From: a virus
Direction: 5' to 3' (one strand)
IMG/VR virus record: IMGVR_UViG_3300020048_000027
Coordinates: 64,001-128,000 of that record
Length of the DNA: 64,000 nucleotides
Shown here: positions 3,731 to 31,230 of the stretch, piece after piece
Layout: the number at the start of each line of letters is the position of its first letter
Position numbering within the stretch: position 1 is the first letter of the stretch
Program-made: the position numbers and the translations under genes
Notes under the pieces: generated by a model
What the model saw: only the letters and a program-made list of their open reading frames with translations
What the model was told of the DNA's origin: nothing
Database searches by the model: none

Positions 3731-3902
3731 TAAATTGCTTGAATGGAAGGACAAAGCTTGAATAGGTGTTTCCTATGGTAGAATTTAAGCATATCCCTTA
3801 AAAGTACTATAGCAACTTCCCCTTTGACTATGTAAAATCTCTAAGATATACTATAACTTTGTTACTTGTACTTGTTTTTAGATGTTTTTCCATAGGGACT
3901 CC

Positions 3903-8042: not shown

Positions 8043-8309
8043 AACTTTTAATGTAACTAATTAAATTATTATTTGTGTAAAGTTTTACCACATTGATGAC
8101 AGTATACAACATTATCAACCCAATGTAACCTACTAAAAGGATGAATACATGTTTCTTGTGATTCTTTTATAGGATTTTCCATTATTTAAAATTTAGAATA
8201 TAATACATTTTTGCTGTATGAATTAATTTATAACATTTAGAACCAAATTCTGTTTCATCTATTAAATTATTATAAAAGTTTATTCCTTTTGTGAATCTAG
8301 TTTCCATCT

Positions 8310-8540
8310 TTATGTTGGTAAAACTTTTACTACTCTTAGCCATACATTTTTAAAATACCATAAATATGGTTTTTCTGTCCAATGAGTTTTATTAGTACCT
8401 GCGTTAAGTAATACCATAGGCATCCCTAATAATAAAATAGGAAGTACAGGTATAAAAATTATTAACATAAGTATAAACATAAAAATGAAATACATAAAAA
8501 GTGAAATTATATCTGTAATCATTATTAGTATATTTTTCAT
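8310..8540 (-). CDS. small membrane protein
   Basis: Long hydrophobic segment. Confidence 0.55.
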   Translation of the reverse strand: MKNILIMITDIISLFMYFIFMFILMLIIFIPVLPILLLGMPMVLLNAGTNKTHWTEKPYLWYFKNVWLRVVKVLPT

Positions 8541-8595
8541 TTGATTATTTGTTTAATTATTAATGTATAACGTCTGTTTTTAGCATAACTTATAT

Positions 8596-8850
8596 CTAAA
8601 TATACGTTAAATAATCGTAGCAACCAACTTTATTTTGGAATTTAGGTATCTTTTCTATATACTTATTTAAATTACTTTTCACTATAAACCGCTTAGGAGT
8701 AATCCATATTCCAACGCTCCCTCCATTATAGCATATTTTCTTTAATCTACCTGTCTGTGTGTTAAAGATCTTTTTACATGTTGAAATTTGGATGTGTGGA
8801 TAGTCTACAAATCTCCATTTCAAAGTGTAATTAATTGATATTGAATTCAT
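8596..8850 (-). CDS. hypothetical protein (cassette-associated)
   Basis: ORF. Confidence 0.6.
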   Translation of the reverse strand: MNSISINYTLKWRFVDYPHIQISTCKKIFNTQTGRLKKICYNGGSVGIWITPKRFIVKSNLNKYIEKIPKFQNKVGCYDYLTYI

Positions 8851-8891
8851 TATGCTTTGGTATTTGTTAGTATATTAATTGTTGTAAAACA

Positions 8892-9179
8892 TTAAAGCTG
8901 ATGTTGGCTATCGTATATTTGTGAAAGTTCAGTAAAAGTATATTCTTTGTCTTTGTATAAAAACATTCCATAGCCTAAGTACCTCGCGTCTTGTTTTATC
9001 CAATCCCATAAAGTTATTTCTTCCTTTTCCTTTAACGATTTTACAACTGCGGGTAAAATTAACGCTTGCTTTTTCGCTTCTTTTAAACATTGAATAAATG
9101 CCCATTTCTCTTTTTCAAGTCCATCTAAACTATCACACATTTCTATTTTTCTCTCTAAGTACTCTATCATTTTTTCCAT
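8892..9179 (-). CDS. modular hypothetical protein spanning an attC-like core
   Basis: Reads through GCA GTT GTA (LPAVVKSL). Confidence 0.65.
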   Translation of the reverse strand: MEKMIEYLERKIEMCDSLDGLEKEKWAFIQCLKEAKKQALILPAVVKSLKEKEEITLWDWIKQDARYLGYGMFLYKDKEYTFTELSQIYDSQHQL

Positions 9180-9238
9180 AAATCTTATTTTTTTTAATTA
9201 ATTCGCTTGTAATCTTACCCGCTTAAAGTTAAAAGCAA

Positions 9239-9544
9239 TTACAAGTTTTCTCGCTCTTTTCTAAGTCTTTTTAACTCTTTTCCTATATGTTTTTTGGCTG
9301 ACATATCCCCAAGTTCGTCTGCATTTATATAGCTATCTTCTAAAATATGTATCTCATTTGTAACTTTAGTTAATTGTTCCTCAATCTCTAAAACTTGCAA
9401 CGTGCTATTAACTGCGCAAAAGGTTAATGCTTTGCCAAGTTTAGCAAATACCATATCAAAATCGTCATAACTAATTTTATCAGCGAAGTACATTTCTGTA
9501 AACACTTTGCCTAACTCTAGTAATTCTTTTTTTATTTCTTCCAT
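9239..9544 (-). CDS. modular hypothetical protein
   Basis: C-terminal module shared with 12500..12835. Confidence 0.7.
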   Translation of the reverse strand: MEEIKKELLELGKVFTEMYFADKISYDDFDMVFAKLGKALTFCAVNSTLQVLEIEEQLTKVTNEIHILEDSYINADELGDMSAKKHIGKELKRLRKERENL

Positions 9545-10185
9545 AATAATTAAATTTTGTATTTATTAAATCGCAATAACATTTTACGCTTATAGTTGTA
9601 GTTTATTACCGTTTTCTTAACCATTCTATACAATCAATGAAACCTTGTTTGTAAATTTCATCGTCTCTGTATGTTTGTAAAGTTTCTGTAAATCCTCTAT
9701 GTTTTTTTTTTAACTCTTTTTTCTATTTCCGAAAACTGTTCTTCTTCTGTCGGTAACAAAACCCCAACTAAATTATAACCATTATTTTCACTTTCTTTTT
9801 TATTTACGATATTTCCATATATGCTTTTTGCCATTTCTTTATTTTTTAAGTTTGTTAATATTCCTTTAAAACAATGGTTATACTCATCGTTATAAAACAT
9901 TTAAACTTTGTTGTAACCTGTCTATTTCTGCGATAAATATATCAATATTTACATCTATTTGTCTTTTTTCTAACTTAAGTAATTCTATTTGCTTATAGTT
10001 AAAGTCAATACTTTCTTGAATGTTTTTTTTGTCCATTTTTTAAACGTTTAATAACTATGCAAATAATTTATATTGCGTAGTCGGTTAGTATTCAGTTTTT
10101 GTTAATCAATTTAATTTATTTCAATATTTAAAATTCGTAATTCTTAGGCAATACAAATCATTTACTAATACAGTTAGCAGTAATA

Positions 10186-10407
10186 CTAACCTTCGTTCTC
10201 CCAAACAATAGATTTGTACATACTCTCTATTCTACTATGTAATGCGTTTGAAACTTCCATTTTGTTTCCAAGTGCTTCATTCGCACATTCAGCAGCAAAT
10301 CTTTTCGCTACATCTTCTGCATACATTTGCATTAATTCTTCCGTTGTAAAGTTTCCTTTAATTGAATTGTAAAACTCCTTTGCTGTTCTTAATTGATAAA
10401 TTCTCAT
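10186..10407 (-). CDS. cassette-encoded hypothetical protein
   Basis: Bounded by GTTAGCAGTAATAC and GTACTACTGCTAAC. Confidence 0.7.
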   Translation of the reverse strand: MRIYQLRTAKEFYNSIKGNFTTEELMQMYAEDVAKRFAAECANEALGNKMEVSNALHSRIESMYKSIVWENEG

Positions 10408-10784
10408 TTTATTTATATTTAGTTGTTAATAATCCGTACTACTGCTAACACCACCTATACGCAAGTTTTGTGAAAAACAAAACCTGACGTATAGCTGTAA
10501 CCGTTATGCGTAATTAAAGCCGACTTTTTATGTTTACGCTAATGGTTTTTAGGCTTTTTGTCTTTGCTTTACTTGCTATTTTCTGTAATGTTCCCTTTAA
10601 AATCGCATAACTCCGTATAAAAAATAAATTACATTTTTCTTTTAAAGTAACTTACTATTAGTAATCCTATTGCAAATCCAACTGCAATACCACCAATAAA
10701 AAATACTATCATTATTTCTATTTCTTCCATTTTATTATAATTTAAGTTAATTAACCATTCATTTTTTATACTATAAAGTTGTAG

Positions 10785-11084
10785 TTAATTGCCGTTGTCT
10801 TTTAACTTGTTTTTTAACCAATCAAAGCAAGCGTTAAATCCAAAAATATACTGTATACTTTCATTTCTGTTATTCACAAACTTGTTTGCAGTCAATCGTT
10901 CTAACTCCGATACCATTTGTTCTTTTGTCGGCAACGTAACACCAACTACGCATAAACGTATAAAATGCTCTACGTAATGCTTTAGTTCTTCTCCAGTAAA
11001 TTGAATCATAGCTATTTGCTTTAGGTTTGTTATTTCCTCTCCGTAAAAGCTTGTGTGTAATTTGCAAAATTCTTTTTTAGTCAT
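10785..11084 (-). CDS. modular hypothetical protein
   Basis: Reads through the core (LCVVGVTL). Confidence 0.65.
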   Translation of the reverse strand: MTKKEFCKLHTSFYGEEITNLKQIAMIQFTGEELKHYVEHFIRLCVVGVTLPTKEQMVSELERLTANKFVNNRNESIQYIFGFNACFDWLKNKLKDNGN

Positions 11085-11145
11085 AATATTTAGTATTTAT
11101 TAATTATTTTATACGTTTATACGTTTAAAGTTAGCAAACATAAAA

Positions 11146-11349
11146 TTATTCACACTCCACCTCGTCTTTTGAAAATGATATACCGTATGCTTTTGCAACA
11201 TCCCATTCAAAATCATTACCAGAATCAATTAAACTTCTTCTAATACCATTTTTTACTGTACGGTCGTTACAAAACCACCCACAATTAATAAATTGTCGTT
11301 TTACTTCTTCATCTCCTTTATAAAAAATAACTACACTTGGTAAACTCAT
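11146..11349 (-). CDS. cassette-encoded hypothetical protein (start MSLPSV)
   Basis: ORF inside segment 11130-11368. Confidence 0.6.
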   Translation of the reverse strand: MSLPSVVIFYKGDEEVKRQFINCGWFCNDRTVKNGIRRSLIDSGNDFEWDVAKAYGISFSKDEVECE

Positions 11350-11353
11350 AATT

Positions 11354-11584
11354 TTACGATTTGCTAACAAGGTATATATGCAATACCCTATTAAGGTTTA
11401 TATTAAATTTTAAAGTTCTCGGTACTCCGTGAAGGTCACAGAAGTAATGTATAATCTTATCAGTAAATGGTGAAAGATTACCATAATCACCTTGAAATAC
11501 ACCATTTTTAGCGGGAACTTTTCCTCTACGCTGGTCTTCAGTTAATAGATTGATACGTTCTTCCCAAGTTAATTCTCTTTCCAT
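11354..11584 (-). CDS. hypothetical protein
   Basis: ORF ending across an attC-like half-site; TACCTTTG box upstream. Confidence 0.6.
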   Translation of the reverse strand: MERELTWEERINLLTEDQRRGKVPAKNGVFQGDYGNLSPFTDKIIHYFCDLHGVPRTLKFNINLNRVLHIYLVSKS

Positions 11585-11696
11585 ATTCTATATTTTTTTA
11601 CAAAGGTAAAACAAATTAATGACAAAACCTAACAAAGAATATGTATCATTAAAACGAACACATATTCTCAAACGTTATGTGTAATAAAATAAAAAA

Positions 11697-11912
11697 TTAT
11701 TTACCATATCTACTATTAACAAAAACTCTATTCGCACCTATTGTAAGTGATAGTTGATTTTGTTCTTTCATAAGTATCTCAAATTGATTTTCTATTCTTA
11801 ACCTATCTAAATTAATTTTTAACATATTAACCAATTTATCCAACTCTGTATCTCTTTTTGAAGTTAGAAAATCAATTTGTTCTTTGTAATGTAGTTCGAG
11901 TTTTTGTTCCAT
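11697..11912 (-). CDS. cassette-encoded hypothetical protein
   Basis: ORF inside segment 11674-11946. Confidence 0.6.
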   Translation of the reverse strand: MEQKLELHYKEQIDFLTSKRDTELDKLVNMLKINLDRLRIENQFEILMKEQNQLSLTIGANRVFVNSRYGK

Positions 11913-12036
11913 TTGTATAATTTTTTATTTTACTAAATATATCAACAAATATAAGAAATAAATCTTACTTTGTCTATTTTTTAATGAAAAGATTTACTTC
12001 TCATATTTGTGACCGTTATAAGTAATAAAACAAAAA

Positions 12037-12216
12037 TTATGAGTTTTCATTTTTCTTTGTTCCATCCTCATTCCACTTTTTAAGAAACTCCTGATTTTCA
12101 GGTTTTGAAAGTTCTTCTTTCATCGCCTCGTCAAATTTATTTTGTATTTCAGTGTTTTGTTTATCTGTTAATGTATTCAAATCCTGAAAATCTTCTTTTG
12201 TTATTTTTGATTTCAT
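12037..12216 (-). CDS. cassette-encoded hypothetical protein (start MKSKIT)
   Basis: ORF inside segment 12015-12248. Confidence 0.6.
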   Translation of the reverse strand: MKSKITKEDFQDLNTLTDKQNTEIQNKFDEAMKEELSKPENQEFLKKWNEDGTKKNENS

Positions 12217-12499
12217 TTTATATAATTTTTGTTTTACATACTTATAACAAAGTGTAAAAAACATTAAAACAATTTTTTATACTCAACCGTTATAAGTAAT
12301 ATTATTTTTGTTTTGAATTTTTATAACTATCGTGTGTTTTATTAACAGCATCTTGAACACTTTCCATCCAAGTTCTGAATATTGGTCTGAAGTTAAATAT
12401 ACTCATCTCAGCATCCCAAATTACTTTTGGTATTTCAATTTTAATAATTTTTCGGTTTTTCATAATTTAATTTCGTATTCATTCATTTTAATTAATTTT

Positions 12500-12835
12500 T
12501 TAAAAGTTCATATTCTTAAAAGTTATGCGTAATTGCAGGTTTTCTCTTAATTTTCTAAGTCTTTTTAACTCTTTGCCTATGTGTTTTTTAGCGGATATAT
12601 CATCACATTCGTCTGCATTTATATAGCTATCTTCTAACTCATATATTTGTTGTGTTAGGGATTTTTCCCCCAATGAACCAACCTTTAACTTTCCGCTAAC
12701 TGCGCTTAAATTTGATTGCTCGTTATGGTATTCTTCGGCAATATTTGCACATTGACTTGCTATTAATTCTTTCCTTGGGTTTGTATCTAACCACTTTTGG
12801 AATTTCGCTATTAATTTTTTTCTATCTTCTGTCAT
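12500..12835 (-). CDS. modular hypothetical protein
   Basis: Shares the EDSYINADE..SAKKHIGKELKRLRK module with 9239..9544. Confidence 0.7.
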   Translation of the reverse strand: MTEDRKKLIAKFQKWLDTNPRKELIASQCANIAEEYHNEQSNLSAVSGKLKVGSLGEKSLTQQIYELEDSYINADECDDISAKKHIGKELKRLRKLRENLQLRITFKNMNF

Positions 12836-12933
12836 AATTTTTAAATTTTGTCTTTTATTTATTGTTTTTAAATTCTAGTTTCTATTAACCACCCGCCCAA
12901 ACTAATAAGTATATACTGTACCCTCTAAAATTC

Positions 12934-13218
12934 TTAGAAATTATTATCATAAAAGTCATCATTACTACCAAAAATTGGTAAAGATAGAAATGCTATTACT
13001 AAACCTAAAACTATATGTATCCTCCAAGCATGCATTCCAGGTAATAATTCACCTGAATAATAATATAATTGGAGAAATCCCCAATAAGAAGCATTAGGGT
13101 CAAGAACATTTAGTATCCAAAATATAGTGAACATTAATAGTGCAAATAAGGGTATAATAGATGATACGAAAACATACCCCAATAATACTCTACTTATATA
13201 ATTTTCTATTTTTTTCAT
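12934..13218 (-). CDS. membrane protein
   Basis: Two hydrophobic segments. Confidence 0.6.
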   Translation of the reverse strand: MKKIENYISRVLLGYVFVSSIIPLFALLMFTIFWILNVLDPNASYWGFLQLYYYSGELLPGMHAWRIHIVLGLVIAFLSLPIFGSNDDFYDNNF

Positions 13219-29973: not shown

Positions 29974-31230
29974 TTAAATTTTTGTAAATTTTGGTAAGTT
30001 AAGTGGAATTTGTAATGGTTGTAAGATTACGTGTTCCTTTATAATATGCTTAAGACTGTCTGACATTTTATCGTAACTAAACCGAGTTCTTGTTATATAG
30101 CCTTGTCTTTTAGCCAACTCTTTATACTTTTTATAGTTCTTAAATACTTCTTTAAAAGCTTGTGATACTTGTTCATCACTAGGTGTAAACCATAGAGCTT
30201 CCTCTAGTATCATTCCTTTAACTGCTGCGCTTTTATCTACTTTTCTTAACTCTCCTCCTACTACTATTGTAAATTCTTTAGATAAGAAATCAACTTGACC
30301 TGACCAGCCTGATGCTATTACCGGTTTATCGGTTGTTGTAAACTCTAGTAAAGGTCTTCCAAATCCTTCTCCCTTTGTTAGAGATACCATCGCTTTAACT
30401 TTCTCATGATTATACAGCTCATTCACTTCTTCGTCTGACAATTCTCCATGCAGTACGTAAATGTTAGGAAGCGTTCCTTTAACGGTTTTTCTTATTTCAT
30501 CTATCTTTTTCAAAATTTTCTCCTTATCCATCACGGAACTTCCTCCTACTTGTGTTTTTAGTATAAGAGCTGGAGCATTAGGCTTATTCTTAAAAGTCTC
30601 TAAAAAACTCTTAACAAGATACCCTACGTTTTTTCTATCTTCTCCTATTTTTCCTTGCATCCAATGTCCAACAAAAAGATAACACCAGCTTTCTTTTATT
30701 GAAGATATATCGAGTGTGGACTTAACAGGAAAATATGTATTTAAATCTACTCCTTCAAATAGTATTTTTATAGGAGTTCCAAGCTCTACCTTAGAAGTTA
30801 TCTGACCTGTTCTTGAATCTTGTACACTATACTTGCTATCCTGTAGTACAGTTTTTCCATGTTCTGAAGAGACTATAATTAAGTCCATTCTATTACATCC
30901 CTCTATCCAACTTGCATCTGCTAAAGTAGTTTCCATAGCAGCTGTTACTCCTATATTGTACCTACCTACTTTTTGAAATTCATTCGGGACTGTAATTTGA
31001 ATAAATACATCAGGTTGGTAGTCTGCTGAATTTACTATTAACGGTGTAAGCATTGTATCGTTATGATCTGCTAAGTAACCTGTTCTTGTATTTCCCCATC
31101 TCTTAGAAAGTATTTTTACATCCCAATCAGGTTGTGTTTCTATAAGCGCTTTTACGAAGTCCCTACTACGAGCTCCATATCCAGAGAATGTATCTACTGG
31201 TGCTGATACTATACATGTTGCTTTTCTCAT
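29974..31230 (-). CDS. glycosyltransferase family 4
   Basis: SGYG, RKN, GEGFGRPLLE. Confidence 0.85.
   Translation of the reverse strand: MRKATCIVSAPVDTFSGYGARSRDFVKALIETQPDWDVKILSKRWGNTRTGYLADHNDTMLTPLIVNSADYQPDVFIQITVPNEFQKVGRYNIGVTAAMETTLADASWIEGCNRMDLIIVSSEHGKTVLQDSKYSVQDSRTGQITSKVELGTPIKILFEGVDLNTYFPVKSTLDISSIKESWCYLFVGHWMQGKIGEDRKNVGYLVKSFLETFKNKPNAPALILKTQVGGSSVMDKEKILKKIDEIRKTVKGTLPNIYVLHGELSDEEVNELYNHEKVKAMVSLTKGEGFGRPLLEFTTTDKPVIASGWSGQVDFLSKEFTIVVGGELRKVDKSAAVKGMILEEALWFTPSDEQVSQAFKEVFKNYKKYKELAKRQGYITRTRFSYDKMSDSLKHIIKEHVILQPLQIPLNLPKFTKI

Follow-up and report, generated by a model that had tools for sequence, protein, structure and literature searches.

In a 64,000-nucleotide stretch of DNA from a large Flavobacterium-type phage (bases 64001-128000 of the 153,571-bp IMG/VR record IMGVR_UViG_3300020048_000027; hereafter "the window" is this whole stretch), the region from ~9200 to 12550 is probably an array of gene cassettes bounded by hairpins, orphaned and in part decayed. 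We consider it likely that this array is one of a cassette system found in Bacteroidota phages, and probably also in their hosts, which works in the manner of an integron but is not an integron. This reading draws on the architecture of the array, the covariation of the arms that enclose its cassettes, the position of exchange breakpoints at short cores, and the linkage of comparable arrays to a recombinase gene. Coordinates are those of the window unless another phage or one of our loci (L numbers) is named, and a caret marks a junction or crossover point.

Architecture of the array

The 153.6-kb record has a G+C content of ~30% and a completeness rating of 94%, and all of its long open reading frames (ORFs) lie on the minus strand. 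Approximately 16 small minus-strand genes with short spacers between them occupy the window from ~8300 to 13000. A first-pass annotation, made from the sequence alone, had described this region as an integron-like array with about 12 imperfect palindromes between 8583 and 12700. We found 12 matches to a GTTA-type core motif at 9228-12522, which agrees with that count, but a recognisable hairpin is left at just 6-7 of them, and 8583-9880 holds remnants only. The examples it quoted are present: the palindrome at 10443-10509, the pair of 54-bp sites (11627 and 12242) that carry a CATTAAAAC loop, and the complementary segment ends at 10173 and 10436 and at 12015-12040 and 12222-12248 (Table 1).

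The motif GTTANNNGTAAT has eight exact copies in the genome, six of which lie in window 10173-12533, all on the plus strand. We then scanned the whole genome for pairs consisting of a GTTA-led word and its reverse complement ending in TAAC, less than 400 nt apart and with a score of at least 9. Five complementary pairs were recovered, all within window 9889-12289 and none elsewhere, and the five matched-end units of the window start at 9889, 10173, 10503, 11130, and 12015. When the sites were folded as single-stranded DNA and compared to dinucleotide shuffles, 10446-10506, 11630-11677, 11947-12018, and 12245-12292 folded better than the shuffled sequences (z-scores in Table 1), and 10040-10096 and 11356-11408 folded no better than these controls. 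Other spacers are reduced to one arm (9228, 12289, and 12522) or have a mutated core (11396 and 11943).

The cassette proteins of the window had no informative match in Pfam or PHROGs, and no DNA methyltransferase was detected among the ten that were scanned. Syntenic relatives located through a 303-aa neighbour gene (60-67% identity in that protein) yielded neither arrays nor breakpoints because these relatives lack arrays, and a 155-aa neighbour gene recovered no relatives when used as a query.

The same architecture in other phages

Segments of the array recur in phages that are otherwise unrelated. Flavobacterium phage vB_FspS_mymlan6-1 has, between methyltransferase genes, a spacer that matches window 10431-10506 at 100% identity, and the uncultured 462-kb phage LR756500.1 has a stretch that matches window 11920-12018 at 93%; each match breaks off immediately after GTTA. 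The inner hairpin of site 10446-10506 occurs exactly in 30 IMG/VR contigs and in five contigs of Bacteroidota metagenome-assembled genomes. Its flanks differ every time, with divergence beginning at TAAC on one side and at GTTA on the other. Across 31 loci holding this hairpin, the two arms of one hairpin match each other only at the core GTTA/TAAC, and the complement of each arm is found 100-1240 nt away, across one gene. This pattern of circular permutation is present in at least 25 of the 31 loci. The cassette signature reported in the first-pass annotation is supported with respect to circularly permuted hairpin units and exchange at G^TTA, and its integron label is not, as discussed below.

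To describe the units more generally, we assembled a collection of 96 distinct units from ~45 loci in Flavobacteriia-type phages, among them cultured phages of Flavobacterium and Polaribacter. The bases at arm positions 5-9 are specific to each unit, pairing is seen at positions 12-14 in ~80 units, and position 11 is a G·T wobble on the coding strand (A·C on the window plus strand) in 75-78 units. The usual distance from the end of the stop codon to the final C of the core is 13 nt. Between the units lie hairpins that are 40-130 nt long and have stems reaching ~21 bp. Five bases (GKTTN) are unpaired after TAAC and 2-3 before GTTA, and the predicted folds therefore contain an asymmetric internal loop together with the strand-specific wobble; no bulged (extrahelical) bases were seen in them. 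The longest ORF begins in the hairpin loop in 20 of 93 units. In the window, the position-11 wobble is found only in unit 10173-10449, where it is the sole mismatch between the arms and where the TAG stop codon ends 13 nt ahead of the core; unit 11130-11368 has C·T at this position, and the remaining units are irregular at positions 10-12. The arm type of unit 10173-10449 also flanks unrelated genes in other phages.

DNA-modification enzymes make up ~40% of the cargo (30 of 75 unit proteins), comprising 22 N6_N4 methylases, 3 Mom, and 2 C5 methylases, plus Dam, MT-A70, and D12; YopX and ADP-ribosyltransferase are among the further cargo. We rejected the possibility that the units are invertible-gene switches, given that 78 of the 96 have the same G·T polarity. 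The opposite A·C polarity was found in one clearly built unit only (L029, 2273-2513), which has its longer ORF on the other strand; the longer ORF is likewise on the opposite strand in a few units that are very short or that overlap. A pattern scan of viral contigs for a stop codon followed by an arm and GGTT gave a match count near that expected by chance, with an exact partner arm in only 23 of 120 cases, and was therefore unusable for estimating prevalence.

Exchange breakpoints fall at the cores

A methyltransferase unit with arms like those of window unit 10173-10449 is present in ten contigs, and on its 3′ side (sense direction) it abuts ten unrelated sequences exactly at GTTA. For a quantitative assessment, we used seven genomes of the cultured Muminvirus/Lillamyvirus isolates of Nilsson et al. 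2020 (PMC7077304), which share segments of 97-100% identity and differ in cassette content and order. Mapped to the coordinates of mymlan, the breakpoints form nine clusters in the minus-strand array, which we compared to the cores with a tolerance of 3 nt. Seven clusters lie at AAC^GTTA within this tolerance (for example 2035-49, 2825-43, 4666-72, and 6984-98). The eighth (3771) is 4 nt away from the GTTA core at 3775 and falls within tolerance only via the TAAC ending at 3773, and the ninth (5325-28) is 4 nt from a TAAC end. Cores were therefore hit by 8-9 of the nine array breakpoints compared to 0.75 expected, and none of 20,000 random trials reached the observed count. No such cores coincide with the breakpoints in the plus-strand genes next to the array. 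The first-pass annotation had proposed that breakpoints lying away from GTT cores in related phages would speak against cassettes, and in these isolates the array breakpoints lie at the cores.

The comparison of cassette order that it also proposed revealed both rearrangement and gain or loss at cores. Two cassettes that are ordered A-B in mymlan are ordered B-A in snork and snusmum, and phage mumin carries an additional cassette at TAAC^GTTAAC of mymlan, with an overlap of AACGTTA. Six different cassettes were counted across the seven genomes at the position that adjoins the conserved last gene of the Muminvirus array. This position (2035-2049 in mymlan6-1, L074; also L193-L198) resembles a hot spot comparable to attI, but is located at the promoter-distal end of the array. 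Nilsson et al. 2020 described 15 methyltransferase genes that are variably present, one of which was linked to plating efficiency (PMC7077304).

In the seven-genome comparison, eight of the nine clusters lie between the 3′ arm of a unit and the next hairpin. As the usual cut on the coding strand thus falls between the 3′ arm (ending TAAC) and the hairpin that follows (beginning GTT), a cassette consists of hairpin, arm, ORF, and arm, in that order. We also observed that one head (inner hairpin, arm, and GGATTATTAAC) and one tail (stop codon and arm) frame unrelated ORFs of 73 to ~350 aa, at window 10431-10506 and in L018, L024, L031, and L138.

A Xer-like recombinase adjoins complete arrays

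In the viral record IMGVR_UViG_3300028557_000060 (L205), an eight-unit array ends at TAAC, and the gene for a 284-aa tyrosine recombinase starts there on the same strand. The protein combines PF00589 with the N-terminal domain PF13495, scores best on XerA, XerD, and XerC models, and reaches 156 bits on the integron-integrase model TIGR02249, compared to a cut-off of 265. Relatives of this recombinase are encoded in 217 viral contigs. We tabulated 60 of the best 80 of these 217, 56 of which have at least 1.5 kb of upstream sequence; the arrays in this sample were reached through the recombinase. At least one matched unit was found in the 4 kb upstream of the recombinase gene in all 56 loci, and at least two were found in 49. 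Across the tabulated loci, 183 units are upstream and one is downstream, and the opposite-strand A·C at arm position 11 occurs in none of these units, with the same-strand G·T present in most. In many loci, no more than tens of bases separate the last unit from the recombinase gene. The junction on the recombinase side is TAAC^TAnnATATAT in several contigs, and TAAC^TACAATATTAC is found beside the last gene of the Muminvirus arrays. At the 3′ end of the window array in the sense direction (8596-8612), the final core that can still be recognised has the sequence TTTAAC^GTATATTTAG, which is loosely similar to the recombinase-side junction of the other phages; as the region is AT-rich, the likeness may be due to chance.

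The window itself has complementary, unit-specific arms alternating with inner hairpins, and lacks the co-oriented recombinase at the 3′ end. Consistent with the first-pass annotation, which found no tyrosine recombinase in the window, searches of the whole record detected no tyrosine recombinase (PF00589), serine recombinase (PF00239), or Y1 transposase (PF01797). Tyrosine recombinases are likewise absent from the complete genomes of mymlan6-1 and P12002L, and an all-against-all protein comparison for a recombinase common to these two phages and the present one returned only unrelated HNH endonucleases.

The suggested search for an IntI-like recombinase in the genome and host found none in the genome, and an integron integrase above the curated cut-off in only one of 301 genomes of the host class; none exceeded the cut-off in the three metagenome-assembled genomes that hold the hairpin. 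Xer-like relatives of the array-linked enzyme are present in 148 of 401 sampled host-class genomes (a tally that includes one unpublished genome, G097, on which no individual claim depends), with 40-48% identity and mostly longer open frames. Typical units were found in five of 12 short loci around these relatives, and no arrays were seen beside three chromosomal recombinases (L206-L208), so that a chromosomal link between recombinase and array is tentative. A homologue 75% identical to the array-linked recombinase (L167, 3963-4817) contains two in-frame stop codons, and may be a pseudogene or a recoded gene.

Proposed mechanism and alternative explanations

On the coding (minus) strand, a cassette begins with GTT and an inner hairpin of 40-130 nt that sometimes carries the start codon, followed by GTTA with an arm of 10-11 nt, the ORF with its stop codon, and the complementary arm ending in TAAC. 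Were such a unit closed into a circle, its two arms would flank the inner hairpin and create one long stem, which would display the conserved AAC/GTT, the small asymmetric internal loop, and, on the coding strand only, the G·T wobble at base pair 11. Cassettes would then be inserted, excised, or reordered when this folded site recombined at AAC^GTT with a site in an array. The circular intermediate and the folding of one DNA strand are steps that we infer, as is catalysis by the Xer-like enzyme; the likely candidate is the 284-aa Xer/IntI-like tyrosine recombinase encoded at the 3′ end of complete arrays. As the recombinase is absent from this genome, we regard the window array as an orphan, whose cassettes either could be moved in trans by an enzyme of the host or of a co-infecting phage, or could be fossils.

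A broader proposal, to which we give about even chances, is that a distinct integron analogue is common to Bacteroidota and the phages that infect them. Its hallmarks would be a short, distally encoded Xer-like recombinase, strand-specific hairpins marked by G·T, and cassettes that carry the site, and often the start codon too, at their 5′ end. It would serve mainly a trade in anti-restriction methyltransferases and small early genes, and the orphan arrays of virulent phages, the present one included, would be serviced in trans by an enzyme of the host or of a co-infecting phage.

Several findings weigh against the cassette interpretation. No recombinase of any class searched for was found in this phage, nor a tyrosine recombinase in mymlan6-1 or P12002L, which makes cassette activity in this phage putative; many sites of the window array are decayed; and the relatives of this phage have no arrays. 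In addition, there is a second, rarer breakpoint between the hairpin and GTTA (L071, L077, L138, and mymlan 5325). The occurrence of one head and one tail around different ORFs is not explained by a single crossover point, and thus requires an additional type of exchange that swaps the ORF within the conserved frame. Finally, homologies of 7-25 nt flank every junction, which makes homology-driven shuffling possible for some of the exchange events.

As a general explanation, homology-driven shuffling of modules is the strongest competitor, and we consider it unlikely. It would resemble the process proposed for PeSLs, the promoter/stem-loop cassettes of T4-type phages: the hairpins would be regulatory elements retained because they serve expression, the general recombination of the phage would cross over in their conserved parts, and mini-circles would be by-products that need no dedicated enzyme, in keeping with PeSL circles, which arise without any integrase (Arbiol et al. 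2010, PMC2839356). Besides the shared sequence at junctions, this explanation is favoured by inner hairpins that are up to 100% identical between unrelated phages, by several array-bearing phages without a recombinase, and by the identity of the commonest array neighbours, which are Erf-type annealing proteins and NinG/Rap nucleases. However, the methyltransferase unit that abuts ten unrelated sequences does so exactly at GTTA with no homology beyond it, and shuffling leaves unexplained the unit-specific complementary ends, the fixed G·T wobble, and the presence of a Xer-like recombinase at the end of 56 of 56 arrays.

We think it improbable that the sites are mainly RNA elements, in which pairing of the arms would close off cistrons in a polycistronic early mRNA, the hairpins would present start codons or signals for processing or stability, and exchange would be incidental. 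Such a role would suit the conserved wobble, which would form a G·U pair only when the coding strand is read, the greater stability of the coding-strand fold for 25 of 34 inner hairpins, and the start codons that lie in hairpin loops in about a fifth of the units (20 of 93). Nevertheless, many genes in the window keep open frames without paired arms, and pairing is therefore not needed for expression. A search of the sites against Rfam, which has no attC model, gave no match, and neither the breakpoints at the 7-nt core nor the linked recombinase would be explained.

Still less probable is that the array is a true integron fragment, that is, a cluster of attC sites without an integrase (CALIN) that is recognised by classical integron integrases of the host. 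Qi et al. 2023 described such clusters in phages, listing Polaribacter phage P12002L and noting methyltransferase cargo (PMC9892861). By sequence comparison, P12002L_attC1 is a site of the present hairpin-cassette family; it is a HattCI-only prediction and the sole one of six phage sites for which no IntI1 recombination was verified (PMC9892861). The neighbouring terminal site, attC2, did recombine with IntI1 (PMC9892861), and we found that it ends at the GTTA core of the gp35 methyltransferase unit. Together with the AAC/GTT triplets, the hairpin shape, and a G^TT crossover as in attC, the HattCI prediction and the attC2 product lend the integron label some plausibility. Opposed to it are the lack of a verified IntI1 product for attC1, the scarcity of integron integrases in the host class and in the hairpin-holding genomes, the lack of an IntI in this genome, the sub-threshold score of the linked recombinase on the integrase model, arms that depart from GTTRRRY, and a hairpin that belongs to the downstream gene, and we did not retain the label.

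Small transposon-like elements, cut and pasted at terminal inverted repeats (GTTA...TAAC) by a transposase supplied in trans, would account for units with inverted repeats as their exact boundaries, for breakpoints that occur at GTTA as well as at TAAC, and for units without an ORF. We give this explanation almost no credence, however, given that no target-site duplication was seen, that unit-specific and mutually complementary repeats are not required of transposons, that insertions occur only at existing cores in arrays, and that the array-linked enzyme elsewhere is a tyrosine recombinase, with the Y1 class (PF01797) being the one transposase class searched for in the genome and not found. 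Single-strand transposition of the IS200/IS605 type was also rejected, as no Y1 transposase was found and the geometry differs.

Features of the window array

Individual units and sites are listed in Table 1. Empty units comparable to the one at 10503-10611, with lengths of 69-101 nt, are present in loci L012, L024, and L027. The protein of gene 11354-11584 is 85% identical to one in locus L014, and the flanks of the two genes differ. The two arms of site 12245-12292 also match each other over 10 bp. The loop motif of site 11630-11677 is found in Polaribacter phage P12002L and other loci as well. On the coding strand, the short (~40-nt) inner hairpins at 11634-11673 and 12249-12288 have the loop CGTTTTAATG, which is common to unrelated phages (30012-30050 in P12002L, L041; also L108, L189, and L190); its conservation suggests that something binds it.

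Table 1 Cassette units and sites of the array, in window coordinates
Feature	Position	Strand	Description
Remnant cassette, gene 9239-9544	9228-9544	minus	3′ arm GTTAAAAGCAAT directly after stop codon; matching 5′ arm absent
Cassette unit, 48-aa gene 9890-10036	9889-10055	minus	Matched ends GTTATAAAACATTTAAA / TTTAAACGTTTAATAAC; score 11 over 17 nt
Degenerate inter-cassette site	10056-10095	minus	28-nt inner segment, then GTTAGTATT; z = -0.5, no better than shuffles
Cassette unit, 73-aa gene 10186-10407	10173-10449	minus	Ends GTTAGCAGTAATAC / GTACTACTGCTAAC, 13/14 complementary; mismatch A·C on plus strand, G·T on coding strand
Best-preserved site, 5′ head of 10186-10407 cassette	10446-10506	minus	TAAC, 53-nt inner hairpin (10450-10502), GTTA; z = -5.5
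ORF-less 109-nt unit	10503-10611		17-nt complementary ends GTTATGCGTAATTAAAG / CTTTAAAATCGCATAAC
Cassette unit, 67-aa gene 11146-11349	11130-11368	minus	Ends GTTAGCAAA / TTTGCTAAC
Decayed site	11369-11404	minus	27-nt inner segment, GTTT replacing GTTA; z = 0.08; overlapped by 3′ end of gene 11354-11584
Hairpin site	11630-11677	minus	40-nt inner hairpin, 8-bp perfect stem, loop CATTAAAAC; z = -2.6
Cassette unit, 71-aa gene 11697-11912	11674-11946	minus	Outer 16 nt of arms match; core-side part diverged (ATATCAAC replacing ...TAAC)
Hairpin site	11947-12018	minus	68-nt inner hairpin (~20-bp stem), then GTTA; z = -3.2
Cassette unit, 59-aa gene 12037-12216	12015-12248	minus	26-nt complementary ends, about 24/26 paired
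Hairpin site	12245-12292	minus	40-nt inner hairpin, loop CATTAAAAC; z = -2.8
Two partnerless 3′ arms	12289-12533	minus	GTTATAAGTAAT at 12289 and GTTATGCGTAAT at 12522; gene 12302-12463 between them

Two pairs of cassette genes inside the array are paralogous, namely 9239-9544 with 12500-12835 and 9618-9900 with 10785-11084. In the first pair, gene 12500-12835 has CAA where its paralogue has TAA before the 3′ arm, and its frame extends 11 codons through the arm. In the second pair, the copy at 9618-9900 appears to be broken by a frameshift in a T run at ~9704-9713.

Significance

Integrons are the textbook device for the capture and reshuffling of single genes, and are regarded as uncommon among both phages and Bacteroidota. 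If the cassette reading is correct, a parallel device would be common in Flavobacteriia-type phages, with relatives of its recombinase in 217 viral contigs and in 148 of 401 sampled host-class genomes, and its main cargo would be phage counter-defence genes. It would also explain why closely related phages differ in methyltransferase content, a difference linked to host range among strains (PMC7077304). A cultured system exists in the Muminvirus isolates, which grow on Flavobacterium LMO6 and LMO9.

Comparison with known systems

Our literature search recovered a single published site of this family, labelled as a putative attC (PMC9892861). The system shares several features with the PeSLs of T4-type phages, which are conserved intergenic stem-loops that flank small accessory genes in the early regions of large virulent phages, and which mark points of insertion, deletion, and replacement between close relatives in phages without an integrase (PMC2839356, PMC4122927). 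PeSLs differ in being direct repeats, in which homologous recombination takes place at variable points, and in having no conserved 7-nt crossover core, complementary gene ends, or dedicated recombinase. No T run follows the hairpins of the window.

A second parallel is the attP of the CTX phage, on which XerCD acts at dif. There, too, a Xer-family recombinase works on a hairpin formed by one strand, with an unpaired central bubble, and a single exchange is completed by replication. In that system, however, a whole phage genome enters one chromosomal site, there are no cassette arrays, and the arms are dif-like.

The closest comparison is with integrons themselves. Both systems have one-gene cassettes in one-directional arrays, imperfect palindromes with AAC/GTT, and arrays that have been orphaned, and in both the G^TT crossover leaves the start of an integrated cassette complementary to its own far end. 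Both also have a tyrosine recombinase of the Xer/IntI branch adjoining a simple site where new cassettes accumulate. The phage-system recombinase, in contrast, is shorter (284 aa), co-oriented with the array, and located at its distal 3′ end, and the hairpin is at the 5′ end of the cassette and may hold the start codon, whereas the attC of integrons is 3′ of the ORF. The outer arms are 14-15 bp long with a fixed G·T wobble, compared to 7 in integrons, and the GTTRRRY consensus is not kept (positions 5, 6, and 7 are R, R, and Y in ~50%, 48%, and 33% of the 96 units, respectively). In the predicted folds, the inner stems are long and near-perfect and show no evident extrahelical bases. Thus, although most of the features that define an integron are missing, the topology of one is kept, including circular permutation, preferred crossover at a 7-nt palindromic core, and a hot spot beside the recombinase.

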